Assembly: GCA_947085985.1 (NCBI GenBank)
Contig: CAMTYL010000004.1
Span: forward strand, 150,885 to 214,884
From: an uncultured bacterium
GTDB lineage: Bacteria; Patescibacteriota; Minisyncoccia; Phycocordibacterales; Phycocordibacteraceae
DNA: 64,000 nucleotides
Direction: 5' to 3'
Positions 11,102-38,859 of this stretch are shown here, one piece after another. A model generated the notes under the pieces. It made no database searches, was not told the DNA's origin, and was given only the letters and a program-made list of their open reading frames with translations. Every line of letters begins with the position of its first letter. Within the stretch, counting starts at the first letter, position 1. The translations under genes were made by a program, and so were the position numbers.

Positions 11102-11267
11102 ATGTGTGTGGATACTATCAGCTTCACTGTATTTGGGCAAGGATGTCGGGCACTTCCACCCACGAGCAGGGAGGGTATACTAGTGCACACATGGGCAGCT
11201 TTTTGTGCTGATTGGCACAACCGAAAGAGTGTTGCCTGGTGTAATTATCAGTTTTGTTCCGTACCAC

Positions 11268-12641
11268 ATGTCTACACTAACGGGGGGCGCCAGCAGGCTA
11301 GAGCCTAAAGAGTTGTGGGAACAGGTGCTGACACAGGTTGAACTTTCAGTGTCGCCGGCAAATTTTAATACATGGTTTCGGGAGTCCTCCATTGTAAAGG
11401 TAGAAGAGGGAATTGTGTTTGTTGGTGTACCTAGTCAGTTTTTTCGCGACTGGTATCTAAAGAAATTTCACTCGCTTCTCCTTAAAATAATTCGTGGCAT
11501 TTCGTACGAGTACCGGAACATTGAGTATCAGATTGTTAAAGATGACCGCCGCAAGCCCAAAACAGAGCGTCGCCAGCCGACTCAGCAGGTGGCCGAGCTG
11601 CCGCTTGATGATTTTTATATAAACAAGAGCGACAACCTAAATCCACGGTACACCTTTGAGTCTTTTGTGGTTGGTGGCTTTAACGAGCTGGCATATACCG
11701 CTGCGCAGGCTGCTATAAAGCGGCCAGGTATAACCTACAACCCGTTCTTTATTTACGGAGAAACAGGGCGCGGAAAGACGCACCTTATCCAAGCAATTGG
11801 AAACCAGTTCAAGAGAATGTACCCAAACCGAAAGGTGTTCTACCTAACGTCAGAAAAGTTTGGAACAGACTACACTGACTCTCTTCAACAGGGAACTGCT
11901 AACCGTTTTAAGGAAAAATATCGCCAGTTTGATTTGCTCATCATGGACGATGTGCAGTTCCTTTCTAAGAAGGAAAAGATGCAGGAGGAGCTGTTCCATC
12001 TCTTTAACGCCTTCCACGACAACAATAAACAAGTAATTTTCTCCTCAGACCGTCCGCCGGTAGCTATTCCTGATATTGCAGAGCGTCTGCGCGGCAGGTT
12101 TGCGAGCGGAATGGCAGTGGATATTGGTGAGCCCGACATGGAAAGCCGTATGGCAATCGTCCGAAAAAAGGCGGCTGTTCATGGCGTTAACCTTTCCGAC
12201 GAGGTAGTGGAACACATAGCAACGTCTATTTCTGGTTCTATTCGCGAACTTGAAGGTGTTATTAACTCTGTAGTGTGCCACACACAGGTTAAAGGCACCC
12301 CGCCAGACCTAGCAGAGGTGCGTCAGTCCCTGCGCTCTTTCGCACGTCCTCAAAAGACTGTGTCCGTGAAGCATGTTGTTTCTAAGGTTGCTGAGTATTA
12401 CGGTATCGATGAAGAGAGTATTTACGAAAAGACGCGTAGGAGGGAAGTGGTTCGTCCTCGCCAGGTGATTATGTATCTACTTCGCGAAGACTTTAGTGTT
12501 TCGTATCCGAACATAGGCTCTAAGCTTGGTGGCCGCGACCACACTACCGTCATTCATTCGTGCGAGAAGGTGAAGCGAGAGATTCTAGAGAACCACGAAC
12601 TGGCAAAGGAGATTGCTGAAATACGAACCCTTTTGGTCTAA
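11268..12641 (+). CDS. dnaA: chromosomal replication initiator DnaA
   Basis: Walker A GETGRGKTHLIQAIGN and C-terminal DNA-binding segment GSKLGGRDHTTVIHSCEKV. Alternative GTG start at 11205. Confidence 0.9.
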   Translation: MSTLTGGASRLEPKELWEQVLTQVELSVSPANFNTWFRESSIVKVEEGIVFVGVPSQFFRDWYLKKFHSLLLKIIRGISYEYRNIEYQIVKDDRRKPKTERRQPTQQVAELPLDDFYINKSDNLNPRYTFESFVVGGFNELAYTAAQAAIKRPGITYNPFFIYGETGRGKTHLIQAIGNQFKRMYPNRKVFYLTSEKFGTDYTDSLQQGTANRFKEKYRQFDLLIMDDVQFLSKKEKMQEELFHLFNAFHDNNKQVIFSSDRPPVAIPDIAERLRGRFASGMAVDIGEPDMESRMAIVRKKAAVHGVNLSDEVVEHIATSISGSIRELEGVINSVVCHTQVKGTPPDLAEVRQSLRSFARPQKTVSVKHVVSKVAEYYGIDEESIYEKTRRREVVRPRQVIMYLLREDFSVSYPNIGSKLGGRDHTTVIHSCEKVKREILENHELAKEIAEIRTLLV

Positions 12642-12877
12642 TTGTTGATAACTCTGTGGATATTCTATGAAAAACTGCCGACTTATTCTGGGGAAAACAT
12701 GTGGGGAAGCCTCGCTTGGCAGGGGGTTGTGTGGAGATAGAAAAAAAGTAGTCCACAGCTGTGCGCCTAGTACCCCTACTTTCTCACCAGGATGTACAAT
12801 GAAGGGGAAGGAAAGTATGGCTTCTTGTCTAGGTCGTAGACGTTATCCCCGCTATCAACACCCCTAATAATAGTCGT
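12642..12877. promoter_or_regulatory. candidate oriC: DnaA-box cluster plus AT-rich unwinding region between dnaA and dnaN
   Basis: TGTGGATAT (12653), TGTGGGGAA, TGTGGAGAT, GTCCACA and TTATCCCCG. AT-rich stretch AATAATAGTCGTATGATCATTATTTTAGATAAAAAAG just before dnaN. Confidence 0.5.
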
Positions 12878-13978
12878 ATGATCATTATTTTAGATAAAAA
12901 AGAGTTCGCAGACGGGGTAGCGAGTGTTGCCAAGTTTGCACAGCGCACATCAGCAAGTCTCCCAGTACTTTCAGGGATAGCAATCATCGCAGGAGACGAT
13001 GGAATTAAACTGCGCGCTACTAATCTAGAGACAGGAATAGACCTTGCTCTCACAGGAACTATCAAAGAGCCAGGAGTGGTTGCCCTGCCAGCAACAGTAC
13101 TGAGAGAGATAACCGCATCAATTTCTGGAAACGGCCCCCTTACCCTGGAACAGTCTGGAAGCACTGTCGTCGTCACCTCGGGGACAGGCACCAGCACACT
13201 TAAAACGCTCGCCTACGAAGACTTCCCGGTACTTCCGCTCCCCGAGTCTCCGAAAGCAACCTTCACGCTCCCAGGGGCAATTTTGCGCTCTTTAATTACG
13301 TCGGTTGCAGCCTACGCGTCCACCTCTACCGTGAGACCAGAGCTTTCTAGCGTGTACCTTTCAGTAGAGGGTGGGGTAATTACCGCAGTTGCTACCGACT
13401 CTTTCCGATTAGCTGAGAAGAAAATTAACCTCTCAAATTCCGTTACGCCCTGCACCTTCCTTATTCCAGCAAAAAACGCGCAGGATATTGTGCAGGTTCT
13501 ACCAGATACTGATATTCAGATCTCACTAGATGACCACCAGTGTGTATTTACCTGGAAGGGAGGACTCGTCACCACAAGACTGGTGGCTGCTACGTACCCA
13601 GACTACGCACAAATTATTCCAAAGGCAGCAACGGGTGAAGCGGTCGTATTAAAGAAAGACTTTGAAGCAGCGCTCAGACGAACGGCAGTATTTTCAGACG
13701 CGTTTCAAAAAATACGCCTAGGACTTTCGCCAGAGGATAAAAAAATAACCCTGCGTTCCCAAAACACAGAAGTGGGGGAGTCGCTGGAAAGTATTTCAGG
13801 AAACCTAAGTGGTGAAGGGGCGGAGCTATCATTTAATCACCGGTACCTTTCAACCCCACTGGCACACATTGGAAGTGAGAGCGTCACCTTATCGCTCTCT
13901 GGAATTGGACGCGCAATGATAATGCGCGGAACCGGCGACCCATCATTCTTGTATCTGGTGATGCCAATGAACCAATAA
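12878..13978 (+). CDS. dnaN: DNA polymerase III beta sliding clamp
   Basis: 366 aa in three-domain clamp pattern. Position directly after dnaA. Confidence 0.9.
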   Translation: MIIILDKKEFADGVASVAKFAQRTSASLPVLSGIAIIAGDDGIKLRATNLETGIDLALTGTIKEPGVVALPATVLREITASISGNGPLTLEQSGSTVVVTSGTGTSTLKTLAYEDFPVLPLPESPKATFTLPGAILRSLITSVAAYASTSTVRPELSSVYLSVEGGVITAVATDSFRLAEKKINLSNSVTPCTFLIPAKNAQDIVQVLPDTDIQISLDDHQCVFTWKGGLVTTRLVAATYPDYAQIIPKAATGEAVVLKKDFEAALRRTAVFSDAFQKIRLGLSPEDKKITLRSQNTEVGESLESISGNLSGEGAELSFNHRYLSTPLAHIGSESVTLSLSGIGRAMIMRGTGDPSFLYLVMPMNQ

Positions 13979-13979
13979 G

Positions 13980-14012
13980 AAGTAAAAGAGCCCTGTCCAG
14001 GCTCTTTTACTT
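13980..14012. terminator. bidirectional intrinsic terminator
   Basis: AAGTAAAAGAGCC-ctgtcca-GGCTCTTTTACTT between dnaN and the convergent PBP gene. Confidence 0.7.
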
Positions 14013-14013
14013 C

Positions 14014-16218
14014 TTATTGGTTCTCTACGCCGCGTAGATCCTGCAGCTCTCCCTGAGCAGGGGATGTTGTTGATACGGTATTTGGCTGCTGCACCACAGC
14101 AGTGCCCCCGGCGGCCCAAAATGTAACCGGGTACTCCCAGTGATAATACTGAGGGTCAGAGGCTGGGTTGCTCGGCGCTCCTCCGCGAGGATTATTTTTG
14201 TTCGTCCAGTGCAAAAGGCTGTGTGAGACACGAGAGCCATCCGGAAGGGTAAGTGTTCCAATACCACGCAGTGCAGGAGGGAGGTTCTCAGGAATAGCTG
14301 GTGGTTCATTGAAGTATTCCTTTGGCATCTTCGCAATAGCTACCAACATAAACTCACGCCACATAGGAGCAACAATATACCCAGCAATCTCCTTTACCAT
14401 CGGAGTGTTGTTATTGTTTCCAGCCCACACACCAACCGCAATCGTTGGGGTATATCCAACAGTCCACGCGTCTCGGGACTCGTTCGTAGTACCCGTTTTA
14501 GCAGCCACATCGTAATCAGGGAAAAAGAACGGGTTCTCTGGAGGATACTCTGGCTGGCGCGCCTGGTTGTCGGACATCATAGCCGAAACGCCGCGCGCCA
14601 CCTCAGCGTCTAATACCTGCTGTGGTGAAGCGGTGAATCGTTCGAGCACACTGCCGCGCTTGTCACGAATTTCTAGAATACCCGTCGGGGGATTGCGAAC
14701 ACCATCGTTGGCTAGCACACCAAACGCACCAGTGATTTCAAGCAGCTTCACTTCAGCCGCACCAAGCGCAAGAGAGAGTCCATATTCCTTTGCCGAACCA
14801 AGCGTGGTGATACCCACCGCCTGACCAAGCGCCAGCACATTATCCATGCCAGCCAAATACAATGCTTTCACCGCTGGAATGTTTATAGACTGCGCCAGTG
14901 CGGTGGTGAAGGTCATTTGGCCACGAAACTTGTCGTCGTAGTTTGATGGGGCATAGCACGGATAGGTGTTGTTGTAGATATCAGTAGCGGAACATGCGGT
15001 TGAAAATTGTGTGGGAACATCAAATATTGCTGTTTGCGTGGTGTAGCCCTTCTTTAGGGCTGCGGCATACACAAATGGCTTAAACGCAGAGCCCGGCTGA
15101 CGCTTCGCAAGGGTTGCGTTGAAGTTTCCATCAATCTCCGTATCAAAATAATCACGAGACCCAACCATTGAGAGAATCTGTCCTGTCTTAGGGTCAATCG
15201 CCACAAGCGCAGCATTACTTGCATTAAAGCGTGACTGATTAGAGAGAGCGTGACGATTCACAATCGTCTCGGCTTCGTGCTGCAGGTCCGCGTCCAGAGT
15301 CGTAATGACCGTTAGTCCTTGAGTGGCGACGTCAGAACCATACTTGCGTTCCAACTGCTGCTCTATGAAGAACACAAAATGAGGAGCAAGAATAGAATTG
15401 TTCTGCTGGCGGCTAAAAACAACCCGTTCCGCTTTTGCTTCAATAAACTCTTTCTCAGTTATATATCCAAGCGCTCGCATACGAGAGAGCACAATGTCCT
15501 TACGCTCGTCTAGGGCGGCACGGTTGTTGCCATACGGAGAGTAGTACGTCGGAAGCTGGGGAATGGCGGCCAGGTAGGCCGCCTCAGCAACAGTGAGCGA
15601 GTTAGCGCTTTTGCCGTAGAACGCCTTACTAGCTACCTCCGCACCATAGAGCGTCCCACCATAGGGGGTCACGTTGAAATAAAACTCCAGAATCTGAGCC
15701 TTCGTATATTTTTGCTCAAGCTTAATAGCAAGAATGACCTCTTGCACCTTGCGAGTAATGCTCTTCTGTCCAGTAAGAATAGTGTTCTTTACCACCTGCT
15801 GGGTAATGGTAGAACCGCCTTGGGCAAAAGAACGAGTGGTAATGTCAGCAATAATTGCTCGCGCAATACCGCGGAACGAAATACCCACATGCGAGTAAAA
15901 CGTAGAATCCTCAATAGCAAGGGTCGCCTTCTGTAGGTTTACCGACACTTCGCTAAGCGGAATGATGTTTCGGCGAACATCGTGGTTTAGGTCATACAAA
16001 ACAGTTTTTCCTGTTCGGTCATAAATCTTAGTAGACTGAGCCACCTTACGGGAATCGAAGTTATTCAGGTCCGGTATGGGGCGCATAGCCACAACCAGCA
16101 CCGCAATGCCCGCCGCCACAAACAAAAGACCCGCGAAAATAAACGCAACTCGAAGGTACGGGTGGGGGTTTTCCAGATGCTTCCGCAAAGCTGGCTTTTT
16201 ACGCTTAGGGCGCGGCAT
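14014..16218 (-). CDS. class A penicillin-binding protein (transglycosylase/transpeptidase)
   Basis: GT51 motifs (EDSTFYSHVGISFRGIARA; QGGSTITQQVVKN) and transpeptidase SAFKP and KTGT motifs. N-terminal TM anchor. Confidence 0.9.
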   Translation of the reverse strand: MPRPKRKKPALRKHLENPHPYLRVAFIFAGLLFVAAGIAVLVVAMRPIPDLNNFDSRKVAQSTKIYDRTGKTVLYDLNHDVRRNIIPLSEVSVNLQKATLAIEDSTFYSHVGISFRGIARAIIADITTRSFAQGGSTITQQVVKNTILTGQKSITRKVQEVILAIKLEQKYTKAQILEFYFNVTPYGGTLYGAEVASKAFYGKSANSLTVAEAAYLAAIPQLPTYYSPYGNNRAALDERKDIVLSRMRALGYITEKEFIEAKAERVVFSRQQNNSILAPHFVFFIEQQLERKYGSDVATQGLTVITTLDADLQHEAETIVNRHALSNQSRFNASNAALVAIDPKTGQILSMVGSRDYFDTEIDGNFNATLAKRQPGSAFKPFVYAAALKKGYTTQTAIFDVPTQFSTACSATDIYNNTYPCYAPSNYDDKFRGQMTFTTALAQSINIPAVKALYLAGMDNVLALGQAVGITTLGSAKEYGLSLALGAAEVKLLEITGAFGVLANDGVRNPPTGILEIRDKRGSVLERFTASPQQVLDAEVARGVSAMMSDNQARQPEYPPENPFFFPDYDVAAKTGTTNESRDAWTVGYTPTIAVGVWAGNNNNTPMVKEIAGYIVAPMWREFMLVAIAKMPKEYFNEPPAIPENLPPALRGIGTLTLPDGSRVSHSLLHWTNKNNPRGGAPSNPASDPQYYHWEYPVTFWAAGGTAVVQQPNTVSTTSPAQGELQDLRGVENQ

Positions 16219-16239
16219 ATGTAGGCGTATGCTAACATA

Positions 16240-16264
16240 AAAGCGGTCCGTACTGGACCGCTTT
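16240..16264. terminator. intrinsic terminator hairpin
   Basis: AAAGCGGTCC-gtact-GGACCGCTTT. Confidence 0.55.
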
Positions 16265-16274
16265 CGTGAAAAGA

Positions 16275-16406
16275 TTAGTAGGATTCTGCTTCCTCTTCCT
16301 CCTCGTCCGCACCAACCTCATCCTCTTCAACACCCTCGTCTTCGTCTTCAGGAATGTCGGTTAGGACTTCGTCGTCAAGATTCTGGAAATCGTCTTCGTA
16401 CAGCAT
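16275..16406 (-). CDS. candidate 43-aa extremely acidic small protein
   Basis: Hand-translated: MLYEDDFQNLDDEVLTDIPEDEDEGVEEDEVGADEEEEEAESY. Lies between ruvC and a terminator. Weak RBS. Confidence 0.25.
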   Translation of the reverse strand: MLYEDDFQNLDDEVLTDIPEDEDEGVEEDEVGADEEEEEAESY

Positions 16407-16493
16407 GATGCGTAACGTTAGGTAAATTATGAATACTCCCCACAGACAGAGAGTATCACCATAATAAGAGCACAGGCTTGCTTTGCAAGGGGA

Positions 16494-16982
16494 CTACCGC
16501 GGCCGTGTGGACAGTGCGGCGATGCCAAGAGCGATAGCATCAAACTCATCATCTAATCGTTTGCGCAAAGGAAGGGAGACAAGTTTGGGTACCATAACCA
16601 TAACTGCCTTCTTGTCTGCGTTGCCATACCCCGTGACCGCAAGCTTTACTTGTTGCGGAGAAAATTCAAGCACAGGAACCCCTGCGCGCCCTGCAGCAGC
16701 AAGCACCGCACCGCGCGCCTCTGCCACCCCAATACCTGTCTGCTGGTTCTTGGTAAAAAACAGAGACTCAATCGCAAGCACGGCGGGGGAGTATTCAATA
16801 AGTAAGCGCTCAATCGCATTAAACACAAAAGCAAGTCGCTCTTCTCGCTCGCCCTTTGGTGGCTGCACCACCTCACTCCACAGACACACCGGTTTACTCG
16901 GGTCGCCCTCAATAATAGCCACACCAAGCCGGTCATAGCCGGGGTCTACGGCAAGCACTCGTGTAGGAGGACGTGCACTCAT
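16494..16982 (-). CDS. ruvC: Holliday junction resolvase RuvC
   Basis: RVLAVDPGYDRLGVAIIEGD N-terminus, 162 aa. Confidence 0.9.
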   Translation of the reverse strand: MSARPPTRVLAVDPGYDRLGVAIIEGDPSKPVCLWSEVVQPPKGEREERLAFVFNAIERLLIEYSPAVLAIESLFFTKNQQTGIGVAEARGAVLAAAGRAGVPVLEFSPQQVKLAVTGYGNADKKAVMVMVPKLVSLPLRKRLDDEFDAIALGIAALSTRPR

Positions 16983-17045
16983 ACAGCAACACTAAAACAC
17001 AAACTCGAAACACTACCATATATGGTAGTGTTTCGTTCAGTCCAA

Positions 17046-17606
17046 TTACTCATTGTCTGTGGTCTCATATCCACGCGCGTTCGTGAACACGCGCTGTACG
17101 TCCTCGTGTTCATCAAAAAGGGACAATAGCGAGCCAAAGGTTTCCTCGTCCTTGGGCGACAAGTCTGTGAGTGGTTCGTTTGGAGTAAGGGCCCCGCCGC
17201 CTTGTTTTGAGAAAGCCCACAGTGCACTCCCTTGAGCGCCAAGCTCGTACCCATTCTTAGTGAGCAGGTGCTTTACCTCTGCCGTGGTGCGATTCTTGTT
17301 GTCGGTGAGTGCGTCTACTACCACCGCAACCCCGCCCGGGCCGTACCACTCGTACACCACCTGCTCTAAATTGCCGGCGTCCTTGCTCGTGCCTTTAGCG
17401 ACCGCGCGCTCAATACTGTCTTTTGGCATGTTTATTGCCTTGGCACGCGAAATGGCAGCAGCAAGGGACGAGGAGGAGAGGTTGCCCGCAGCCTTTTTTG
17501 ATTCTAAGGTGATGAGTTTTGCAAAACGCGAGAACTCGCGACTCTTGGCCGCGTCCGACGCGCCCTTCTGCCGCTTAATTTGTGACCATTTGTTGTGTCC
17601 GCTCAT
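17046..17606 (-). CDS. yebC: YebC/PmpR-family transcriptional regulator
   Basis: MSGHNKWSQIKRQKGASDAAKS N-terminus. Conserved ruvC-yebC-ruvB neighbourhood. Confidence 0.85.
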   Translation of the reverse strand: MSGHNKWSQIKRQKGASDAAKSREFSRFAKLITLESKKAAGNLSSSSLAAAISRAKAINMPKDSIERAVAKGTSKDAGNLEQVVYEWYGPGGVAVVVDALTDNKNRTTAEVKHLLTKNGYELGAQGSALWAFSKQGGGALTPNEPLTDLSPKDEETFGSLLSLFDEHEDVQRVFTNARGYETTDNE

Positions 17607-17624
17607 TTAAAGAGTATACAAAAC

Positions 17625-18632
17625 CTAGACCAAATACTCACGGCCTTTTTGGGTGAGCATGCGCCCGCGAGGGGAGCGCTCAATGAAGCCAAGGCGAAGC
17701 AGGAAGGGCTCGTACACGGTCTCCACTGTGTCAGGGTCTTCGTGAAGCGCACTTGCGAGTGCGCGGATTCCAGCCGGACCACCCTTAAACGAGTCGCGAA
17801 GCGTGGTGAGATATCGTTGGTCGTCCTTAGTAAGGCCGAGAACATCAATACCAAACAGCTCGCAGGCAGCGTCAGCAACATCACCCGAAAGTGGTAATTC
17901 ATGTACTTCGCCATAATCGCGCACTCGCTTCAAAAGAGCGTTAGCGACACGTGGCGTTGCGCGGCTGCGCGTAGCAACACGGTCAATAACTTCCTCTGGT
18001 GCAGACAGAGAGAGCACCTCGGCTGATCGACGGATGATGCTGCGCAAGTCGTCCTCAGTATAAAAATCAAGCTGGTACACACCACCACCAAAGCGAGAGC
18101 GAAGTGGGGGAGAGAGCTGGGCCATACGAGTAGTTGCGCCCACAAGCGTGAATGGAGGCAGGGCAAGCTCCACGGTGCGGGCAGAGGGCCCCTTACCAAG
18201 GACTAAATCAAGGGAGCCTGACTCAAGTGCGGGGTAGAGCAGCTCCTCAATCTTGTGGGAGAGCTGGTGAATCTCATCAATAAAGAGCACAGTGCCTGGC
18301 TCTAGGTTAGTGAGAATGGCAGCCAAGTCGCCTGCGCGCTCAATAGCAACTCCGGAGGTGGTCTTTAGTGGGGCGTCCAGCGACGCGGCTACCAGGTGGG
18401 CGAGGGTTGTCTTGCCAACTCCCGGAGGTCCATAAAAAAGAATGTGTTCCGGCATACCGCCGCGCTTCTTTGCGGCCTCAAGCACTATCTGCACGTTGGA
18501 TTTTACGTGTGCCTGGCCCACATAGTCGTCCCAGAGAGAGGGGCGCAGCGCCGCGTCCAGGGATTGGTCGCGAATAGGGCTTGCCTCGCTGTTAGTCTGG
18601 AGAAGCGGGGAGTCGCTGGGGGTGCTTGACAT
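17625..18632 (-). CDS. ruvB: Holliday junction branch-migration helicase RuvB
   Basis: GPPGVGKTTLAHLVA and VLFIDEIHQL motifs. ATG at 18632 gives 335 aa. The ORF-track N-terminal extension was rejected. Confidence 0.9.
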   Translation of the reverse strand: MSSTPSDSPLLQTNSEASPIRDQSLDAALRPSLWDDYVGQAHVKSNVQIVLEAAKKRGGMPEHILFYGPPGVGKTTLAHLVAASLDAPLKTTSGVAIERAGDLAAILTNLEPGTVLFIDEIHQLSHKIEELLYPALESGSLDLVLGKGPSARTVELALPPFTLVGATTRMAQLSPPLRSRFGGGVYQLDFYTEDDLRSIIRRSAEVLSLSAPEEVIDRVATRSRATPRVANALLKRVRDYGEVHELPLSGDVADAACELFGIDVLGLTKDDQRYLTTLRDSFKGGPAGIRALASALHEDPDTVETVYEPFLLRLGFIERSPRGRMLTQKGREYLV

Positions 18633-19006
18633 AAAAATGGTCTGTGCTAGTATTCTAGCATACGTGGGAAAGGCCCGAGAGACACCGTCTCTACAGGCCT
18701 TTCTTGTTGAAAAAACGCTAATACGGGCCTTGCGCAAAGCATACCGCTTCGCACGAGGTCTTAGGCGTTTTTCCTTTGACATCCTACACACAACCCTCTA
18801 GGCAAGGCTTGACGGCTTCAGAGCGTTTCCCCAAGGACCTTCTGGTTCCCACCTCGTAGTGGGCGCGCTGGGAGAATCCCCAGGTGTCTCGTTCACCTTT
18901 CGTTTACGAAAGGAGTGCCTGGAGGGTTGTGTGCGGGATGTTTTTGTTTTCTGTACACTAGTAGACGTGGGTGTCATGGTGGCGCCCACACAACAGGAGA
19001 GCAGTA

Positions 19007-19294
19007 ATGCTTAATCTGACGGTTGCGGTCCCTGTACCGCTTGTACTTTTCATTAGCGTACTCGCTTTAGCCGTTATCGGCTATGTGAGGACGAAAGAAA
19101 CCGAGGCCCGCATGTTGTGGGTCACGATCGGATTTTGTGAGGTCATACTCGCACTCATCTGCTTCGTGGGCATTGATGCCCTGTTCCACAGAAACCTGAC
19201 CATCGTCTGGTTCGTGGTGCCTATCACGTTTTCTTTCATCTCCTTACTTGCCCTTCTGGGCAGCAGTCTCCTTATGGTGAAGGGAAAACTGTAA
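19007..19294 (+). CDS. small membrane protein
   Basis: AGGAGA RBS 9 nt before ATG 19007. Three hydrophobic helices. Confidence 0.4.
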   Translation: MLNLTVAVPVPLVLFISVLALAVIGYVRTKETEARMLWVTIGFCEVILALICFVGIDALFHRNLTIVWFVVPITFSFISLLALLGSSLLMVKGKL

Positions 19295-19371
19295 AAGCGA
19301 GTTCCACTACCTGTGGCCCTCGATGTATGTACCCTCATCGAGGGCCATTACTATTTGTGTATACTTGGAGC

Positions 19372-19554
19372 ATGAACGCCCCGCATATTTCTGCAGCCTA
19401 TACGAAAGCAGCCGACCACATTCTGGCCCAGGTGCGCGAAGAAGTTGCAGCCATAACAGCTGCAGCCCGCGCCATTTCACAAGAGGCAAAAAAGGAGAAA
19501 GAGAGCAGCGCTCTCGCTGCTCTGCGCGCAAAACTATTTGATACACGGCCATGA
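19372..19554 (+). CDS. small hypothetical protein
   Basis: ATG 19372. Ala-rich helical sequence. Stop overlaps the next start (ATGA). Confidence 0.3.
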   Translation: MNAPHISAAYTKAADHILAQVREEVAAITAAARAISQEAKKEKESSALAALRAKLFDTRP

Positions 19555-20159
19555 ACGGAGCGCACGAACATCTGCCGCCGGTAGCGAAAGCAGAAAGAGA
19601 ATTAGTGGGTGGCAGCGAGGAGCGCGTACACAATGAGCACGAGCTCGTTGCAGCAAGCCTGAATGCTAAGCTTGCGCTTAACGAAGCAATGCAAGCGGCA
19701 CCAGGACGCGCAGAAGAATTGGAAGTTCTGCGCAAGAGACTTGACTCACTCATTACAGATGCGAACGAGGCACTTAAGACGCTTGGGGCAGTAGCGGCCG
19801 TTGGTGACGTGCTTGAGGGTGCGCGCACAAAAAGTACTGAGCAGTCGGGACTGGTTGACCCCCAAACACTTGTGGAGAACCCCGACAAGGCTGAACAGCT
19901 TCTCGAGGGCGTAATTGCGATTACTGAGAACGTGTCTGACGACCCAGCACATCGTGCACTCTCAAACGAGGCGAAAGCAGCGCTCGCAGAGATTCCCCGC
20001 ACAAAGCAGACGGGCAGAAGGCTGGCACTTACTATTGCCGAGCGTGTTGCGAAAATATGCCTAGACCTGGCTGGTCTTGGTGCCGTAAGTCACGCGCTAG
20101 ACCTGATTGAAGACTGTACGCGAGTATTTATGGAGAATCGGCGCGCAGCCACCGCTTAG
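19551..20159 (+). CDS. hypothetical alpha-helical protein
   Basis: 202 aa, E/A/L-rich. Translationally coupled to the upstream small ORF. Confidence 0.4.
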   Translation: MNGAHEHLPPVAKAERELVGGSEERVHNEHELVAASLNAKLALNEAMQAAPGRAEELEVLRKRLDSLITDANEALKTLGAVAAVGDVLEGARTKSTEQSGLVDPQTLVENPDKAEQLLEGVIAITENVSDDPAHRALSNEAKAALAEIPRTKQTGRRLALTIAERVAKICLDLAGLGAVSHALDLIEDCTRVFMENRRAATA

Positions 20160-21856
20160 TCGCGCGGCACGTCCACCACCTTGAAGACCTCTTCAAGCGA
20201 CGTCTCGCCACTGATTGCTTTCAACACACCCTCTTGTGCCATGGTGAGGTAGCCCTGACGACGCACTGATTTTGCAATGTCACTCTCGCTTGGGTTGTCG
20301 CGAAGGAAGGTGCCCAACTCTTCGTCCATAAATATTGCCTCATGTACGCCGACGCGTCCTTTGTATCCCGTCTCGTCCTCTGACTTCGGGTCCGGTACCC
20401 ACACCATATCTATAGAAGCCGGTAGAAGACTCTTGTCTTCTACCGTAGAGAGCACGCGCTCCATGAGTGTCTTCTCTTCGTCCGTTGCGGGCACTTGCTT
20501 GCGCGCGTTTGGGTCAAGGGTTCGCACCAAACGTTGCGCCATCGCAACCGAGACCGCAGAGGCAAAGGTTTTTGGATCAAGCCCAAGGTCTACCAAGCGA
20601 GGGAAGGTACCCGCTGCGTTGTTGGTGTGGAGTGTTGAAAACACGAAGTGTCCGGTGAGTGCTGCCTGTACCGCCACTTGCGCCACTTCAGCGTCGCGGA
20701 TTTCTCCCACCATGATTACGTCCGGGTCCTGGCGAAGTACCGAGCGCAGTCCGGAGGCAAACGTATAGTCAGTGCCATTTGTTTGAGTCTGCACAATGCC
20801 TGGCAGGTGATACTCAATCGGGTCCTCAATGGTCACAATTTTAATCTCAGGGGTATGGATATGGCGCAGGAACGCGTAGAGGGAGGTGGTCTTTCCGGAA
20901 CCAGTCGGACCAGTCACTACCAACATGCCGTTAGGGCGAGTGATTTCGTCGGTGAGACGCGTCAGTAGTTTCGGGTGAATACCAAGCTTCTCAAACTCAA
21001 CTCCAAGCACAGAGGGGTCAAGTAAGCGAAGCACAAACGATTCACCAAACGCTCCAGGAATAACCGAGGTGCGGATCTCAACGTCGCCAGAAGGTCCTGG
21101 CACCGAGATGCGGCCGTCTTGCGCGCGGTTGGTGACGTTTAGTTTAAGGCCGGACAACAGCTTGATACGGCTTGCGAGCAAGCGGTACGCGTGAGGGTCA
21201 AAGGTATACATGTCGGTAAGCACACCGTCCAGACGCATACGAAGACGAACACCCGTTTCTTCTGGCTCCAAGTGAATGTCAGAGGCACGAAGCGCAAGCG
21301 CGGAGGCCATGATGTCTTCCAACAGTCCCGACACTTTTGCATGCGCGCCATCAGCAAACGCCTTGTCTAGGTGCGCGCGAAGCGCAGACACGGTGGTAAG
21401 TTCGCGGGTGAGTGCCGCCTGAGCCTCGTTTGAAAGGTCAAACACGCCAGAACGACTCACGCTTGCCAGGGAGAGATCCTGATATCGAACCCACGCAGTT
21501 TCTAGGCTTTTCATAGAGACCAGGAACCGCTCCAAAATGAAACCCTGTGCCTCAAGCGCCTGCTCAATCGCAGGCCAATTCTTGTTCTGCGGATTATGAA
21601 TGGCAACCGAGAGGTGGCGGCCACTTTTATCAAACAGAACAACCTCTGCCGCGTGTGCGTCCGCTTCAGGGAGAAGCCGAAGTGCGTCCACATTGATGGG
21701 CATGATGGTGAGGTCGGTGTAGGTGTAGCGGTACTTTTCAGCAAGTATTCGCGCCAAATCCTCCTCCTCCTTTTCGCGCAGGTGCGCCAATTGCTCACTC
21801 TGTGCTTGGTCGTCAAAATGAACCGTCATATATACGTGAATCATAGCACCCAGCAC
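20156..21856 (-). CDS. pilB: type IV pilus assembly / type II secretion ATPase (PilB/GspE family)
   Basis: Walker A VTGPTGSGKTTSLYA, plus TIEDPIEY and MVGEIRD. N-terminal GspE_N-like domain. GTG start at 21856 with in-frame ATGs at 21844 and 21829. Confidence 0.85.
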   Translation of the reverse strand: MLGAMIHVYMTVHFDDQAQSEQLAHLREKEEEDLARILAEKYRYTYTDLTIMPINVDALRLLPEADAHAAEVVLFDKSGRHLSVAIHNPQNKNWPAIEQALEAQGFILERFLVSMKSLETAWVRYQDLSLASVSRSGVFDLSNEAQAALTRELTTVSALRAHLDKAFADGAHAKVSGLLEDIMASALALRASDIHLEPEETGVRLRMRLDGVLTDMYTFDPHAYRLLASRIKLLSGLKLNVTNRAQDGRISVPGPSGDVEIRTSVIPGAFGESFVLRLLDPSVLGVEFEKLGIHPKLLTRLTDEITRPNGMLVVTGPTGSGKTTSLYAFLRHIHTPEIKIVTIEDPIEYHLPGIVQTQTNGTDYTFASGLRSVLRQDPDVIMVGEIRDAEVAQVAVQAALTGHFVFSTLHTNNAAGTFPRLVDLGLDPKTFASAVSVAMAQRLVRTLDPNARKQVPATDEEKTLMERVLSTVEDKSLLPASIDMVWVPDPKSEDETGYKGRVGVHEAIFMDEELGTFLRDNPSESDIAKSVRRQGYLTMAQEGVLKAISGETSLEEVFKVVDVPRD

Positions 21857-21899
21857 CTGCGGGGGTCGGGCGTTGCGTGGGGGCAGGGCACAGTCGCCC

Positions 21900-21928
21900 T
21901 TGACAAAACACCCTTTTGGGTGTAATAT
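21900..21928 (+). promoter_or_regulatory. consensus sigma70-type promoter
   Basis: TTGACA (21900-21905), 17-nt spacer, TAATAT (21923-21928). AAAGGAGG RBS follows before ATG 21998. Confidence 0.6.
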
Positions 21929-21997
21929 GTATATATAAAGTCGCTCTTTCCAGACGAATAGTCAGAAAGGGCTCACGCCGCAAAAAAGGAGGGACGC

Positions 21998-22705
21998 ATG
22001 TCCGCTCGCAAAATCACTGCCGCTCTGTTCGCCTTGGCTCTGTTGGCTCCGGCCACCAGCGTCTTCGCGCAGACGGTACCGGCCGAAGACGGCTGGTACA
22101 GCGCGGGCGACACCGTCACCCGCTCACCGAAACCGTCCTGCGGCAAGATGCCGAAGGACGGGGAATACGAGCCGCTCTTCAAGATGGAGGGCGGCGTGTA
22201 CACTACTTGTCGCTGGTCCTACAAGGGGCCGAAGAAGAAGGCGGTGTATACCGGCTGGGGCTGGTTCCAGTGCTCAATGCAACACTTCATGTCGGTAGAA
22301 GACTGTCGTGCAGGGTTGATGAACTTCGTCACCCCCACACAATACTTCTCGGGCGGATTCCAGCCCGACTACTCCGGTTTCCGGCAGTACGGCGGGTACC
22401 AGCAGCCCTACTACAGTGGCGGCGGGTACCAGCGACCGTACGTCTGCCGCAACCAGGGCGACCCGGCCTGCTACCAAGGCTCGCGTTCGGGCGGCGGCTA
22501 CTATCCGCCACCACCGCCAACGCGCGGGCCTGTCTCTGGACAGCTCTACGTCTGCCGGGGATCGGGTGATCCCGGCTGCTACCAACAGACGCCTTCCGGA
22601 GGCGGATACACTCCGCCCCCGGCGACCCAGAACCCATCTTCCGGTAGCGTATATAGCTGCCAGGGGACGGGGGACCCGAACTGCTACCGGGCTCCGCGCC
22701 AGTAG
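21998..22705 (+). CDS. secreted Gly/Tyr/Cys-rich repeat protein on a GC-rich island
   Basis: Signal peptide MSARKITAALFALALLAPATSVFA. Three C-x3-GDPxCY repeats (VCRNQGDPACYQ, VCRGSGDPGCYQ, SCQGTGDPNCYR). Local GC about 65%. Confidence 0.6.
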   Translation: MSARKITAALFALALLAPATSVFAQTVPAEDGWYSAGDTVTRSPKPSCGKMPKDGEYEPLFKMEGGVYTTCRWSYKGPKKKAVYTGWGWFQCSMQHFMSVEDCRAGLMNFVTPTQYFSGGFQPDYSGFRQYGGYQQPYYSGGGYQRPYVCRNQGDPACYQGSRSGGGYYPPPPPTRGPVSGQLYVCRGSGDPGCYQQTPSGGGYTPPPATQNPSSGSVYSCQGTGDPNCYRAPRQ

Positions 22706-22729
22706 CTCACCCTGACTATCTCGTCGAAT

Positions 22730-22759
22730 CGCGCTCATCCTTCGGGATGGGCGCGTTTT
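22730..22759 (+). terminator. intrinsic terminator
   Basis: CGCGCTCATCC-ttcg-GGATGGGCGCG followed by TTTT. Confidence 0.6.
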
Positions 22760-22822
22760 GATGTCCAATTACTGATCTGTGTGCCAGTTCCGTTGCTATT
22801 TGGGGCGGGGTACAATTAGGGC

Positions 22823-23275
22823 ATGCAACGATTCCTCCCTGACTTAGAAGCGCTTACCAAGGAGGCAAAGACATTTACCGGAACGCTTGTACCAAAAGCG
22901 CGCGGAGCAACCTTGGTGACTCTCTCGGGAGAACTTGGGGCGGGGAAGACATCCTTTGCGCAGGGTGTAGCCGCAGCACTCGGTGTCGCAGGCTCGGTCA
23001 CCAGCCCCACTTTTGTTCTTGAAAAGGTGTACGAGCTGCGAGGTCAGCCATTTTCTAAACTCATTCACATAGATGCGTATCGGCTGGTAAGTGGGGACGA
23101 GTTGCGAGCTCTTGGCTTTGACGAGCTGATGGGCGAGGCCAGCAATCTCGTACTGCTTGAGTGGCCAGAAAAAGTATCGGATCTGCTTCCAGCCCCCGCG
23201 CACCGCATTACACTCACGGTGCCGGAACCAGCAGATAATCCGGCAACCGCCGGGCGAACTATTTCGTATGCCTAA
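22823..23275 (+). CDS. tsaE: tRNA threonylcarbamoyladenosine biosynthesis ATPase TsaE
   Basis: LSGELGAGKTSFAQG P-loop and SPTF motif, 150 aa. Confidence 0.8.
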   Translation: MQRFLPDLEALTKEAKTFTGTLVPKARGATLVTLSGELGAGKTSFAQGVAAALGVAGSVTSPTFVLEKVYELRGQPFSKLIHIDAYRLVSGDELRALGFDELMGEASNLVLLEWPEKVSDLLPAPAHRITLTVPEPADNPATAGRTISYA

Positions 23276-26478: not shown

Positions 26479-26675
26479 GTGCGCCTACCTGGGACGTGAT
26501 TACACTTCTCGCTCCTTACAGGAGCAGTACACCTTGTGGAGATTTTGCTTCATGACTTCGCAAAATCTGCTCACAAGGTCTTCGAGCCCAGGACGCAGGC
26601 TTCCCAAGCCTGCTTAGGCGCACAAATTAAAGAACCGCCAGTGGGGCGGTTCTTTAATTTGTGCGCCTACCTGGG
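26479..26675 (-). repeat. tRNA-3'-associated structured element, Lys copy
   Basis: 15-nt direct repeat GTGCGCCTACCTGGG at 26479-26493 and 26661-26675. 23-bp hairpin GGCGCACAAATTAAAGAACCGCC-agtg-GGGCGGTTCTTTAATTTGTGCGCC overlaps the tRNA 3' end. GCAGGCTT-ccc-AAGCCTGC hairpin. Terminal GTG-TAAT-CAC hairpin. Confidence 0.6.
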
Positions 26676-32278: not shown

Positions 32279-33382
32279 ATGTCGGACAGTCTTTTGACCC
32301 GTATAGCACGTACAGAGTTCGCGCCACCGCGGTATCTCTCGCTTACTGCGGCTGGTATAGATATTTCAACCAGCGGAATAAAGGCCGCAGTTCTTGCAGA
32401 ACGTATACACGGCCTTGAGTTAGTGAAATTTGCAGAACACCTATTACCTGCAGGTGCGGTGGTGGGTGGTGAGATAGCGGATCCAAAAGCCGTCATTGAA
32501 GCAGTGCAGACCATCGTCAAAAAGAACAATATCAAGTTTGCAAACATCGCACTTTCGGAATCCCGCAGCTATTTGTTTGAAGCAGTGCTAGAGGGTAACC
32601 ACGAGCAGGCCACCTCTAAAGAGCTCCGCAGCCTTACGGAGTCACACTTAGATGAATACGTGCCCTTGCCGCCAGCAGATGTTGCGTTTGATGTCGCGCT
32701 CACTGCAACAACAAAGGACACCACCACGGTGGTGGGCGTGGGGTATGCACGACGAGTGATAGACGAATCGCTCGCAACGCTAGACGACGTCGGCATCACC
32801 ACGCGCGCGATTGAAAGCGAAATATTTTCAATTGCACGCGCGCTTATTCCCCATGACAGCACCGAGACGGTACTCATCATTGATATAGGAAAGACCACCA
32901 CAAAGTTAGCGGTGGTAACGGGGCAAACCCCACGATTTGCGACAACACTAGATATTGGAGGAGACTCGCTCACGCAGGCAGTGATGAAGCACTTTGGTGT
33001 AAGTGAAGAGGAAGCAAAGAAAGTAAAGGCGGAGAAGGGCTTGGTAAGCGAGGGCGGCAAGGACGAGTACATGTCTTCTATGCTCCTCACGGTTTCAGCA
33101 ATTCGCGACGAAATTAGTCACCGCCTTGAGTACTGGCAGGGGAGGGCGCAGATGGGAACTGCACACGAACCAGTTACTCGTGTCATCCTAACGGGCGGAA
33201 ACGCCACCGTCCGCGGGCTACCAGAGTATTTGGAGACTGCCATTAAGCTCCCGGTGGCACTTGGTGACGTGTTCACCAACCTAGCTTCTCGCGATCATTG
33301 GCTGCCACCCCTTGATTACATGGAGTCGCTCGCGTACGCAACCGCCATTGGTCTTGCACTGCGTGATTTTCACACAACCTAA
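32279..33382 (+). CDS. pilM: type IV pilus assembly protein PilM
   Basis: Actin-like ATPase N-terminus GIDISTSGIKAAVL. 367 aa. Followed by pilN/pilO-like genes. Confidence 0.75.
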   Translation: MSDSLLTRIARTEFAPPRYLSLTAAGIDISTSGIKAAVLAERIHGLELVKFAEHLLPAGAVVGGEIADPKAVIEAVQTIVKKNNIKFANIALSESRSYLFEAVLEGNHEQATSKELRSLTESHLDEYVPLPPADVAFDVALTATTKDTTTVVGVGYARRVIDESLATLDDVGITTRAIESEIFSIARALIPHDSTETVLIIDIGKTTTKLAVVTGQTPRFATTLDIGGDSLTQAVMKHFGVSEEEAKKVKAEKGLVSEGGKDEYMSSMLLTVSAIRDEISHRLEYWQGRAQMGTAHEPVTRVILTGGNATVRGLPEYLETAIKLPVALGDVFTNLASRDHWLPPLDYMESLAYATAIGLALRDFHTT

Positions 33383-33385
33383 GCC

Positions 33386-33931
33386 ATGAACCTGCTCCCC
33401 GACAGTAGAAAGAAGCGTCTCGCACAACTCTATCTGGTGAGGCTAAGTGTGGTGAGCGCCGCACTCCTCGCGGCGGTGGGCGTAATTCACGCTGCGCTCT
33501 CCATTCCTTCACTTGTGTACGCACATCAGCTGGTGACCGACCGCACACAGACACTCTCCAGTCTTGGTGAGCAGCTGGCAGGAGCGGAGGATAAGCAGGT
33601 TGGAGAGCGTGTAGCGCACCTGGCTACTTCTGCCACAGCGCTCACGGGAAGCACACAAGGAGTGGCAGTGAGCAGCTTACTTCGCGCGCTCACTCAGATT
33701 GATCATCCGGGAGTTTCAATTACAGGCATGTCGTTTACTCGCGCACAGGCCCCGGATGCACACCGGCTTACTATTTCTGGAAAGGCAATAGGAAGAGGAG
33801 CACTACGCTCATATGCGACTGCACTTGGAACGCTTTCGTACGTAAAGACTGTTGATTTGCCCGTCAGTGCGTATGCAAAGGAAAGTGATATTGATTTCTC
33901 GCTTACGCTCATAGGTACCCTCACGCCATGA
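33386..33931 (+). CDS. PilN-like pilus assembly protein
   Basis: Single N-terminal TM helix (LSVVSAALLAAVGVIHAAL) with coiled-coil. Position after pilM. Confidence 0.5.
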   Translation: MNLLPDSRKKRLAQLYLVRLSVVSAALLAAVGVIHAALSIPSLVYAHQLVTDRTQTLSSLGEQLAGAEDKQVGERVAHLATSATALTGSTQGVAVSSLLRALTQIDHPGVSITGMSFTRAQAPDAHRLTISGKAIGRGALRSYATALGTLSYVKTVDLPVSAYAKESDIDFSLTLIGTLTP

Positions 33932-34458
33932 ACCGCCCCCTCTTACTTCACGCGCTCGTTGCTCTAGCCTTACTAGTAATTGCACTTAGTGCAGTGGTTG
34001 GCACGTCGATCGTGCTTGTAAGTACGGAAAAGGAGGCGGACCGTCTCGCAGCACAGATTGAAGAGAAGCAGGCAGAAATGCTCCGTGTGGCCGCAGCAAA
34101 GGCAGCGCTCCCGCTACTGGTAGAGGCTGAAGGAAAACTCGCAAAGCACAGCTTGCAAACAAGCGACATAGTCCCGTTTCTGGAAGAACTTGAGAGGCTG
34201 GGTAGGGTGCAGGGAGCAGACGTTGAAGTACTGTCAGTAACGGGAGGGCAAGGAAATCCTGCTCAACGTTTTTCACTCTCTCTCAAGGTGTCTGGCTCCT
34301 ACGACGCAGTGGCGCGCACCATTGGACGCATTGAATACGGACCGTACGACACTCAACTCACCACGCTCACTATTGATAGCGGCTTCGCAGAAGGATCAAA
34401 GAACAGGACATGGACTGCAGCGGCTGTTTTCTCAATAGGCGCCAGCGCCACCAACTAG
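33928..34458 (+). CDS. PilO-like pilus assembly protein
   Basis: N-terminal TM helix plus coiled-coil (AAQIEEKQAEMLRVAAAKAAL). Overlapping start with the upstream gene. Confidence 0.5.
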   Translation: MNRPLLLHALVALALLVIALSAVVGTSIVLVSTEKEADRLAAQIEEKQAEMLRVAAAKAALPLLVEAEGKLAKHSLQTSDIVPFLEELERLGRVQGADVEVLSVTGGQGNPAQRFSLSLKVSGSYDAVARTIGRIEYGPYDTQLTTLTIDSGFAEGSKNRTWTAAAVFSIGASATN

Positions 34459-38175: not shown

Positions 38176-38286
38176 AAATCAGCCAACCCAGAAGTGAATA
38201 CTTCCGGGTTGTTGCTGTTTGCAGAAGCTAGCTTGTCTTTTGGTCTGGTTGCACATACCATTCCCTTCGGAAAAGGGGGTATCAAC

Positions 38287-38859
38287 ATGTACAAAGTTTT
38301 TGCAGGGTTCAAGGTTCCCGAAATCTTGAACCCGTTTGCGGAAAATATCGACCGACTCGTGGTGGTACACGGCGGACCTGTCGTGCGGCGTAAACACCCA
38401 CTACACGTCACCGTCATGGCGCCACGAACCGTACGAGATCAGCAGCGCCATGAGCTCGAAGCGTTTGCACAGGAGTTCAATACTGACTACGGAAATGTGC
38501 CGTGTCGTATTGCGTCCCTTCAGCGCTACGAGCACCGCAGCAAGAAGTTCTTTGTTGCAAGTCTCACGGGGCAGCAATTGAGCGACACCATTGATCACTT
38601 TCACCACGAGCTGCATAGGAGATTTTCCTTCACACGGCGTCAACATGAGGGAACAAAGCCTCACATAACGCTGGTCAGCTCCAAGCACACGCGAAGGCAA
38701 GAGGTGTTTGACCGCGTGGTCAGTGCCGCTCACAGTATTGAGTACCCGCGAGAGCCTCTCCGTCTCCCGCACATCGTTCTTCATGTCCACAAGGAGGGAA
38801 CAGAATTACCGCACGTTTCGCCGCCACCAGGTGAACCGCACGCTGGGTGGCAGCCATAG
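38287..38859 (+). CDS. 2H phosphoesterase superfamily protein (LigT / 2'-5' RNA ligase-like)
   Basis: Two H-x-T/S-x motifs (HVTVM; HITLVS) at the expected spacing. AAGGGGG RBS before ATG 38287. Confidence 0.6.
   Translation: MYKVFAGFKVPEILNPFAENIDRLVVVHGGPVVRRKHPLHVTVMAPRTVRDQQRHELEAFAQEFNTDYGNVPCRIASLQRYEHRSKKFFVASLTGQQLSDTIDHFHHELHRRFSFTRRQHEGTKPHITLVSSKHTRRQEVFDRVVSAAHSIEYPREPLRLPHIVLHVHKEGTELPHVSPPPGEPHAGWQP

Follow-up and report, generated by a model that had tools for sequence, protein, structure and literature searches.

In the hbs mRNA of Bacillus subtilis, a 14-bp interaction that joins the 5' to the 3' untranslated region (UTR) limits or modulates the access of RNase Y (Braun, Durand and Condon 2017, PMC5737220). 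We use a computational analysis to study a single-gene locus that shares several features with hbs and lies in a 64,000-nucleotide stretch (the window) from an uncultured bacterium of the Patescibacteriota (contig CAMTYL010000004.1, positions 150,885 to 214,884). We call its clade Candidatus Saccharibacteria, after the database record of one relative. The gene, at 21998-22705 on the plus strand of the window, encodes a 235-aa protein with an export signal and stands between a promoter and a terminator of its own. We consider it probable that the locus is a single-gene cassette for the expression of a hypervariable secreted protein, passed on vertically and confined to a clade of Candidatus Saccharibacteria.

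As in hbs, we find a short monocistronic mRNA for a small protein (an abundant one in the case of hbs), a structured leader and a strong Shine-Dalgarno (SD) sequence. In both, a helix joins the 5'UTR to the 3'UTR beside the terminator, of about 14 bp in hbs and a predicted 13-16 bp here. The two differ in that they have no sequence relationship and belong to different phyla, in that the leader partner in the cassette is a hairpin loop, and in that the whole coding sequence (CDS) is also hyper-structured and rich in G and C at third codon positions (GC3); for the cassette, a function as a closed mRNA is a prediction. A further comparison is with hypervariable mosaic surface or secreted proteins encoded at fixed loci (pilin and adhesin alleles, polymorphic effectors), where conserved flanks and a conserved export signal likewise accompany a divergent mature region and the exchange of modules. 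The cassette has no homology to those families, its variation is seen between lineages, and the window holds no silent cassettes, diversity-generating retroelement (DGR) or repeat-mediated switching machinery. Gly/Tyr-rich adhesive or structural proteins, such as mussel foot proteins and coat or wall proteins, resemble our protein in composition only, with its basic, disordered Gly/Tyr/Pro tail and small folded module; for the C-x3-GDP-x-C loops of that tail we found no counterpart. Finally, Sec-dependent class II bacteriocins are also small, secreted, Gly-rich, disulfide-containing products of strongly expressed monocistronic genes (strong expression being predicted here), whereas the cassette has neither an immunity nor a transporter gene as a partner and matches them in neither sequence nor fold. 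What the locus combines is a hypervariable secreted-protein locus with a predicted hbs-like closed mRNA, in an orphan family and an under-studied phylum.

The cassette reads from left to right on the plus strand. A sigma-70-type promoter at 21900-21928, with a -35 box TTGACA (21900-21905), a 17-nt spacer and a -10 box TAATAT (21923-21928), matches the consensus at 10 of 12 positions, and transcription is predicted to start near 21935, which would give a leader of about 62 nt. Within the leader, a stem-loop at 21943-21972 has the stem GCUCUUUC/GAAAGGGC and carries the box GACGAATAGTCAG in its loop (21953-21965). The SD sequence AAGGAGG (21986-21992) lies 5 nt upstream of the ATG at 21998. The 708-nt CDS (GC 0.641) begins with a signal peptide of 24 residues (21998-22069), MSARKITAALFALALLAPATSVFA, followed by Q (QT), where the cleavage site was judged by inspection. 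We divide the remainder into an N-module (aa 25-77, 22070-22228) with W33, PKPxC48, G66, C71xW73 and G77, a mid-module (aa 78-123, 22229-22366) with C92 and C103, and a tail rich in Gly, Tyr, Gln and Pro (aa 124-235, 22367-22702). In the tail are three Cys loops: loop 1, YVCRNQGDPACY (aa 148-159, 22439-22474); loop 2, YVCRGSGDPGCY (aa 184-195, 22547-22582), within a 108-nt duplicated unit (74 nt, 72% identical); and loop 3, YSCQGTGDPNCY (aa 219-230, 22652-22687), all three of the form Y-x-C-x3-GDP-x-C-Y. Beyond the stop codon, a 3'UTR box, CCCTGACTAT(C)TCGTC (22710-22725), is complementary to the leader loop box over 13 bp with a 1-nt bulge, plus GGG:CCC. The unit ends in an intrinsic terminator (22730-22759) with an 11-bp GC-rich stem and a TTCG loop (hairpin 22730-22755), followed by TTTT; its fold has a free energy of -31.4 kcal/mol (z = -4.95), and the hairpin starts 24 nt 3' of the stop codon. 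An earlier note on this DNA, made from the sequence alone, had listed the promoter, ribosome-binding site, signal peptide, low-complexity tail, three Cys repeats and terminator, all of which we find where it placed them, and its description of a self-contained unit fits a monocistronic gene that comes with a consensus promoter of its own, a strong SD, a signal peptide and a terminator. The DNA repeats of the Cys loops (72% identity, 108-nt spacing) appear in a general repeat search; Tandem Repeats Finder reports no array in the locus because the repeats are too diverged (72%).

How much weight can be placed on signals as short as these? A scan of 5 kb gives three promoter-like matches where 2.5 are expected, so that one match alone is no more than chance; the pattern CTTGACAAA-N15-18-TANNNT occurs once in the window, against 0.03 occurrences expected. 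The stronger argument is comparative. In all 11 lineages with a homologous gene, the -35 box is TTGACA without a mismatch, followed after 16-18 nt by a -10 box of the form TAnnnT; all 11 also have AGGAG or GGAGG 6-8 nt upstream of the start codon. Because they are kept in 11 diverged lineages, the promoter and SD signals go beyond chance. A terminator hairpin stands at the equivalent position in each lineage as well, by inspection. The gene had been called likely highly expressed: signals suggestive of high expression are indeed kept across lineages, and the output itself is a prediction from them.

The transcript appears to be structured well beyond its leader. The same leader hairpin forms in the window and in lineage L001 (z = -2.3), the loop box GACGAATAGTCAG is unchanged in 9 of 11 lineages, and variants of the stem, such as CUUUC/GAAAG against CCUUC/GAAGG, preserve pairing (by inspection). 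The 5' and 3' boxes form a perfect inverted repeat of 15 nt in L001; their complementarity comes to 16 bp in L018 and, in the window, to 13 bp interrupted by a one-base bulge. Both boxes are present in 8 of 11 lineages, with duplex z-scores of about -2 to -4.7, clearly better than shuffles in most. When these eight sequences are aligned, the 16-pair helix has 88.8% of its cells paired; in slid registers the share is 23-44%. In whole-transcript folds of the window, L001 and L018, the box helix is the outermost element of both the minimum free energy (MFE) and the centroid structures; the corresponding z-scores are -7.1, -4.4 and -5.6, while neighbouring segments of equal length give -1.1 and +0.2. 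As a stricter control, we hold the amino-acid sequence and the codon usage and permute the synonymous codons. The native CDS is more stable than its permutations in all 11 lineages (z from -1.1 to -5.2, mean -2.7, window -5.2), and the same control on 20 other genes of the window gives z = -0.31 +/- 0.84. An Rfam search at gathering and relaxed thresholds finds just tRNAs elsewhere in the window, the best UTR match scoring 20 bits against a threshold of 112.

The synonymous codons that fold so well are also unusual in composition. The earlier description of the locus as a GC-rich island holds: GC is 0.641 in the CDS and peaks at 0.687 in a 300-nt window (22350-22649), against 0.523 for the full 64 kb. 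At third positions, the gene reaches 0.784, against 0.544 +/- 0.053 for 57 open reading frames (ORFs) of the window (z ~ +4.5). GC at first positions is 0.564, under the ORF mean of 0.602, and at second positions (GC2) 0.576 against a mean of 0.433, raised because of the content of Gly, Pro, Ala, Ser and Cys. The GC excess is about half driven by amino acids (GC2), and the remainder is a preference for C-ending codons. Pooled over six orthologues and compared with flanking genes, third-position C is 0.46 against 0.29 and G 0.34 against 0.28; at fourfold sites, C goes from 0.23 in the flanks to 0.44 in the gene and G just from 0.31 to 0.33. Individual codons follow suit (TTC 33% to 91%, GTC 11% to 43%, GCC 16% to 43%, TCC 14% to 37%), and GCG and GTG are used less in the gene than in the flanks. 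A shift that is specific to C rather than uniform counts against a donor signature and also against simple GC-biased gene conversion. The homologues have GC3 of 0.67-0.82 in all 11 lineages, where the remainder of each contig has GC of 0.44-0.53; since GC3 is raised in every lineage, the excess has been maintained by the gene for a long time.

The position of the gene tells the same story of long residence. In all 11 lineages, the homologue lies beside a divergent gene for a T2SSE/PilB-type secretion ATPase (in the window at 20156-21829 on the minus strand, PF00437, E = 1.6e-102, likely start ATG at 21829). Downstream follows TsaE (22823-23275, plus strand, PF02367, E = 5.6e-31) in the nine lineages whose contig extends that far, and then PolA where the contig reaches it. 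One lineage, L025, has an additional small membrane ORF between, with the same ATPase N-terminus. These lineages are far from close copies of one another: their flanking proteins are 58-97% identical to those of the window (T2SSE N-termini 58-95%), and synonymous sites are saturated even in the closest lineage pairs (synonymous divergence, dS, 1.2-1.4). At the cassette borders we find no integrase, tRNA or direct repeats, the nearest tRNA being at 26662. Of the hallmarks of a horizontal island, the locus shows atypical composition, and it shows neither patchy presence, nor a different site among relatives, nor mobility signatures at its borders.

Outside this clade the protein has no visible kin. 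A word-indexed search of 5.8 billion clusters returns, besides the query, a single relative that is 54% identical to it. With HMMER run in full on 1.84 billion representatives, 11 real relatives of 134-189 aa emerge, and a profile of the N-terminal and middle modules raises the total to about 14 clusters among the 5.8 billion, all singletons or doubletons and either unnamed or annotated "hypothetical protein". A 762-aa entry in the HMMER list (P0011) is a low-complexity repeat artefact and not a relative. Searches of Pfam, NCBIfam and PHROGs with the protein assign no family, a PDB sequence profile gives no match below E = 1, a peptide-pattern scan of Joint Genome Institute metagenomes yields no relative, and in the literature on secreted, cysteine-rich or highly expressed hypothetical proteins of Saccharibacteria we found nothing relevant. 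A search with a 22-nt pattern from the leader recovers one Hainich groundwater contig; the sources of the relatives include contigs named for Hainich groundwater as well as Polish wastewater and river metagenomes (SRP286056; PMC9405806).

Members of the family have in common a signal peptide, W33, PKPxC48, G66, C71xW73, G77, usually C92 and C103 (both absent in P0008 and P0016), and a Tyr/Gly/Pro-rich tail. By inspection, the signal peptide of the window protein combines a basic n-region with a hydrophobic core, V-F-A occupies positions -3 to -1, there is no lipobox Cys, and features of a Sec/signal peptidase I substrate are seen in 12 of 12 aligned members. The classical Sec signal and the lack of a G|F/M-x-x-x-E motif lead us to reject the idea that the neighbouring ATPase has in this protein a substrate of the type IV pilin or pseudopilin kind. 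The tail of the window protein is basic and contains GGGY and PPPP runs. Tails in the family end in a C-x3-4-[GN][DH]P-x-C loop, mostly present once, twice in P0004 and three times in the window. AlphaFold2, run on the shallow family alignment, gives a confident three-stranded sheet over aa 31-80 (predicted local distance difference test, pLDDT, 85-95) and a disordered tail; for the N-terminal and middle modules modelled together, pLDDT averages 75.5. Foldseek comparisons of the full-length and N-domain models with the PDB return nothing below E = 1, and matches to PilM and STING are noise (TM <=0.27).

Quantitative comparison of the gene with its neighbours reveals how differently they evolve. 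Between the window and L001, the secreted protein is 54% identical, against 97% for T2SSE, 92% for TsaE and 94% for PolA. Nonsynonymous divergence (dN) is 0.24-0.63 in the modules of the secreted protein and 0.02-0.05 in the flanks, so that the nonsynonymous rate of the mature part is 10-25 times that of its housekeeping neighbours; dN/dS of the mature protein is below 1 in every comparison with unsaturated dS. The promoter, the leader and the signal-peptide codons, on the other hand, are nearly identical. Within the mature part, the N-module follows its own genealogy. It is 93% identical between L001 and L018, where the flanks are 68-79% identical, and 75% and 71% identical between the window and L019 and L015 (flanks ~67-79%), but just 45% identical between the window and L001, whose flanks agree at 94-96%. 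DNA identity of L001 and L018 climbs to 83-93% solely over codons 27-77, and dS of this module is 0.62 against 1.8-2.4 in the flanks. The middle module tracks the flanks. All four combinations of two N-types with two mid-types are found (window A1, L001 B1, L018 B2, L015 A2), and P0015 is a further module mixture. Because the identity of the N-module contradicts the flank phylogeny, horizontal exchange does occur at this locus, as allelic swapping of modules within the clade. We reject diversification of the DGR type, as the 64 kb hold no second copy of any part of the gene and none of the loci has a neighbour resembling a reverse transcriptase; nor is there a paralogue of the secreted protein in the window.

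In a separate observation on the signal peptide, its 24 codons (21998-22069) show dS of 0.17-0.29 between the window and L001 or L010, against 1.2-1.4 in the flanks, in what is a small sample. The low value could reflect constraint at the nucleotide level (translation initiation, RNA structure) or recent homogenisation.

We can now assemble the cassette as we think it works. A near-consensus sigma-70 promoter would transcribe a leader of about 62 nt with a stem-loop and a strong SD. The 708-nt CDS that follows, rich in C-ending codons, is predicted to fold far tighter than its amino-acid sequence and codon usage demand, and the 3' box just before the terminator would pair with the leader loop, closing the transcript end to end. 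Together, promoter, leader, CDS fold and end closure would yield a long-lived, heavily translated mRNA. The location of the gene, about 9 kb downstream of dnaA on the strand of rising cumulative GC skew, is consistent with the high expression that we predict. The product would be exported by Sec and cut after VFA, leaving a mature protein of ~211 aa. In it, a small beta-sheet module, presumably with a disulfide, would be followed by another pair of Cys and by a basic, disordered tail rich in Gly, Tyr and Pro, at the end of which stand one to three loops of 7 residues (C-x3-GDP-x-C), presumably closed by disulfides. The mature part would vary fast and have its modules shuffled between lineages under expression signals that stay almost frozen. 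As for what the protein does, we suggest with low confidence that it is an abundant extracellular or wall-associated binding or specificity protein, whose variable N-module sets specificity at the interface between epibiont and host or phage. It is possible, if on balance doubtful, that the locus encodes an undescribed determinant of host or phage specificity in environmental Saccharibacteria, a massively produced, secreted, disulfide-looped protein with an exchangeable N-module that would decide on the partner, and whose mRNA is end-closed and hyper-structured by means of synonymous C-ending codons. If this is true, no such mRNA-stability design would have been reported before from the Candidate Phyla Radiation, and it would be clear why a GC island can be ancient rather than imported.

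Several points weigh against this picture. The high output is predicted from sequence signals only, and GC3 is ordinary (0.58) in L19, the sole gene of the window identified as coding for a ribosomal protein, so that the codon bias cannot be matched to a "highly expressed gene" codon set. The U-tract of the terminator is short, at four U. Covariation in the box helix is sparse: among the eight sequences only one or two pairs covary, one as GC x4/AU x3 and a second weakly, and 13 of 500 shuffles reach the same score, which is suggestive and no more. Because the 5' box does not vary, it is chiefly the conserved complementarity that speaks for the long-range helix, and three lineages depart from it, L019 having no 3' box and L013 and L025 carrying different loops. 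On the side of the protein, dS is saturated (~1.2-2.4 even between the closest lineages), so that dN/dS above 1 is not usable as a test of positive selection, and part of the divergence is due to relaxed constraint on the disordered tail. The protein shows no visible motif for anchoring (LPXTG, transmembrane segment or lipobox), and with no fold or sequence relative and no functionally linked neighbour, a binding or adhesin role is a guess. Overall, evolution and RNA give clear signals, in a family that is tiny and with evidence that is computational throughout.

The composition of the gene invites two other explanations. The cassette might be a recent foreign island from a donor of higher GC that has not yet ameliorated, which is in substance what the earlier note proposed in calling it probably horizontally acquired. 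Such an origin would account for the outlying values (GC 0.64 and GC3 0.78 against 0.52 and 0.54, z ~ +4.5) and for a self-contained unit with promoter and terminator of its own. It does not account for the same site and orientation in 11 lineages whose flanks have diverged to 58-97% identity, for a GC3 equally high in all of them, for a bias that is specific to C-ending codons and no uniform GC shift, for the lack of a homologue outside the clade among 1.84e9 representative proteins, or for the lack of mobility genes, flanking tRNA or direct repeats at the locus. That note had named relatives carrying the gene at the same site with native composition as evidence against its reading; the site is the same, beside T2SSE in 11 of 11, and the composition is not native (GC3 0.67-0.82 in all relatives), which reads as a property of the gene and not a donor signature. 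We regard import as very improbable, and what stands of the claim of transfer is the swapping of the N-module among related lineages, by allelic recombination in the clade. This same exchange raises the alternative that GC-biased gene conversion at a recombining mosaic locus has enriched the gene without selection on expression or RNA structure. Module exchange is clearly evidenced, and GC does peak inside the recombining CDS and is ordinary in the flanks. However, at fourfold sites C nearly doubles where G barely moves, with GCG and GTG falling. Nor does it fit that the signal-peptide codons, which track the flank phylogeny, have a GC3 (0.75) as high as elsewhere, or that the UTRs within the conserved tract are not GC-rich, and it leaves the better folding of the native codon order in 11 of 11 lineages unexplained. 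We think this explanation unlikely.

The pairing boxes and the function of the product can be read differently as well. The boxes could be binding sites for a protein on the DNA, in place of RNA partners: they might serve as operators, or be terminal inverted repeats left over from an ancient insertion. The box is partly palindromic (CAGAC-N5-GTCAG), two sites for one protein would covary too, and the 5' box is invariant even where the 3' box gains bulges, which suggests constraint beyond pairing. Yet the non-palindromic centre (GAATA against TATTC) is oriented as a reverse complement in 8 of 8 lineages, both boxes lie inside the transcript, after the promoter and before the terminator, and one lineage maintains the pairing through a G-U pair. 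Together with the outermost place of the helix in the MFE and centroid folds of the three lineages tested, and with the box occurring nowhere else in the 64 kb beyond chance, this makes DNA sites an improbable reading of the boxes. For the product, a secreted antimicrobial is conceivable: a Sec-dependent, bacteriocin-like toxin whose mosaic modules record arms races between target and immunity. A small, basic, Gly-rich, disulfide-looped protein with a Sec signal, apparently strong expression and modular shuffling fits such a role, and one weak structural match is to the bacteriocin laterosporulin10 (E = 6.7, not significant). Against it, no lineage has an adjacent immunity, transporter or modification gene, the neighbours being T2SSE, TsaE and PolA, and there is no sequence or fold similarity to known bacteriocin families, in a search that did not extend to the PADLOC library. 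We judge this quite unlikely and retain the vertically inherited cassette for a hypervariable secreted protein as the probable reading.

If so, the locus matters in several ways. Saccharibacteria are obligate epibionts whose host-recognition molecules are largely uncharacterised, and a conserved cassette of this kind is a concrete candidate. It is also a natural example of a GC island that owes its upkeep to selection acting on codons and on mRNA folding rather than to transfer, and as such a caution for calls of horizontal gene transfer that are based on composition. In the genetics now emerging for Patescibacteria, the frozen promoter, leader and terminator could be put to use as a strong expression cassette. 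The pairing of leader loop and 3'UTR, if confirmed, carries the idea of an hbs-type closed mRNA to a distant phylum.

Besides the CDS, the locus holds open frames at 21916-22569 (217 aa) and 22416-22715 (99 aa) on the plus strand and at 22274-22768 (164 aa) and 22329-22637 (102 aa) on the minus strand. Stop-free antisense stretches recur among the orthologues, up to 233 aa in L010. The extra frames exist because the sense strand avoids TTA, CTA and TCA, which bears out their earlier dismissal as a compositional artefact. The 164-aa antisense ORF is accordingly rejected as a true gene: it is a by-product of that avoidance and has no start-signal or conservation evidence. We also reject a non-coding RNA in place of a protein gene, since the ORF, SD, signal peptide and the Cys, Trp and PKP positions of the N-module are conserved and dN/dS of the mature protein is below 1.

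Some further details concern RNA structure. In L019 (4421-4470), the 5' loop box is kept and the 3' box is absent. L013 (7930-8000, 8481-8530) and L025 (690-744, 1150-1200) have different, shorter leader loops, each with just a 6-nt complement in the 3'UTR (TCGGTG/CACCGA and CGTCAG/CTGACG), which could be compensatory replacements or chance matches. Among the control genes, the sole one to fold markedly better than its permutations (z = -2.6) is an unannotated 221-aa ORF at 38194-38859, which has no NCBIfam match.

The neighbouring genes appear to start in another way. Upstream of the tsaE start, GGTACAATTAG (22808-22825) is conserved in the window and in nine related loci that reach tsaE; in the window its TACAAT stops 6 nt short of the ATG, a gap that is slightly wider in some loci, and no SD is visible. 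This motif looks like the -10 box of a leaderless or near-leaderless mRNA, unlike the SD-bearing leader of the secreted-protein gene. On the minus strand at 21827-21848, TGCTATGAT contains a perfect extended -10 (TGnTAtgAT), located 10 nt upstream of where T2SSE likely starts and kept as (a/g)GTGCTAT(g/t)AT in several relatives, which suggests that the ATPase gene has a very short leader too.

Further along, three small ORFs upstream of the ATPase gene on the opposite strand (18971-20159) encode a membrane protein (95 aa in L002, with a longest window ORF of 107 aa), a protein of 75 aa and one of 202 aa that is rich in Ala and Glu, with no Pfam match recorded. The full trio is present in about half of the loci that reach that side and partial in others. 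At 32279-34458, pilM is followed by unannotated ORFs of 181 and 176 aa at the positions expected for pilN and pilO, so that the window holds pilus machinery apart from the T2SSE gene adjacent to the cassette. The neighbourhood of the replication origin lies at 11205-18791, with dnaA, dnaN, a class A penicillin-binding protein, ruvC, yebC and ruvB placed by correspondence with the annotated L002. Cumulative GC skew climbs almost steadily from ~6 kb to the end of the window, which places the secreted-protein gene near the origin and co-oriented with replication.

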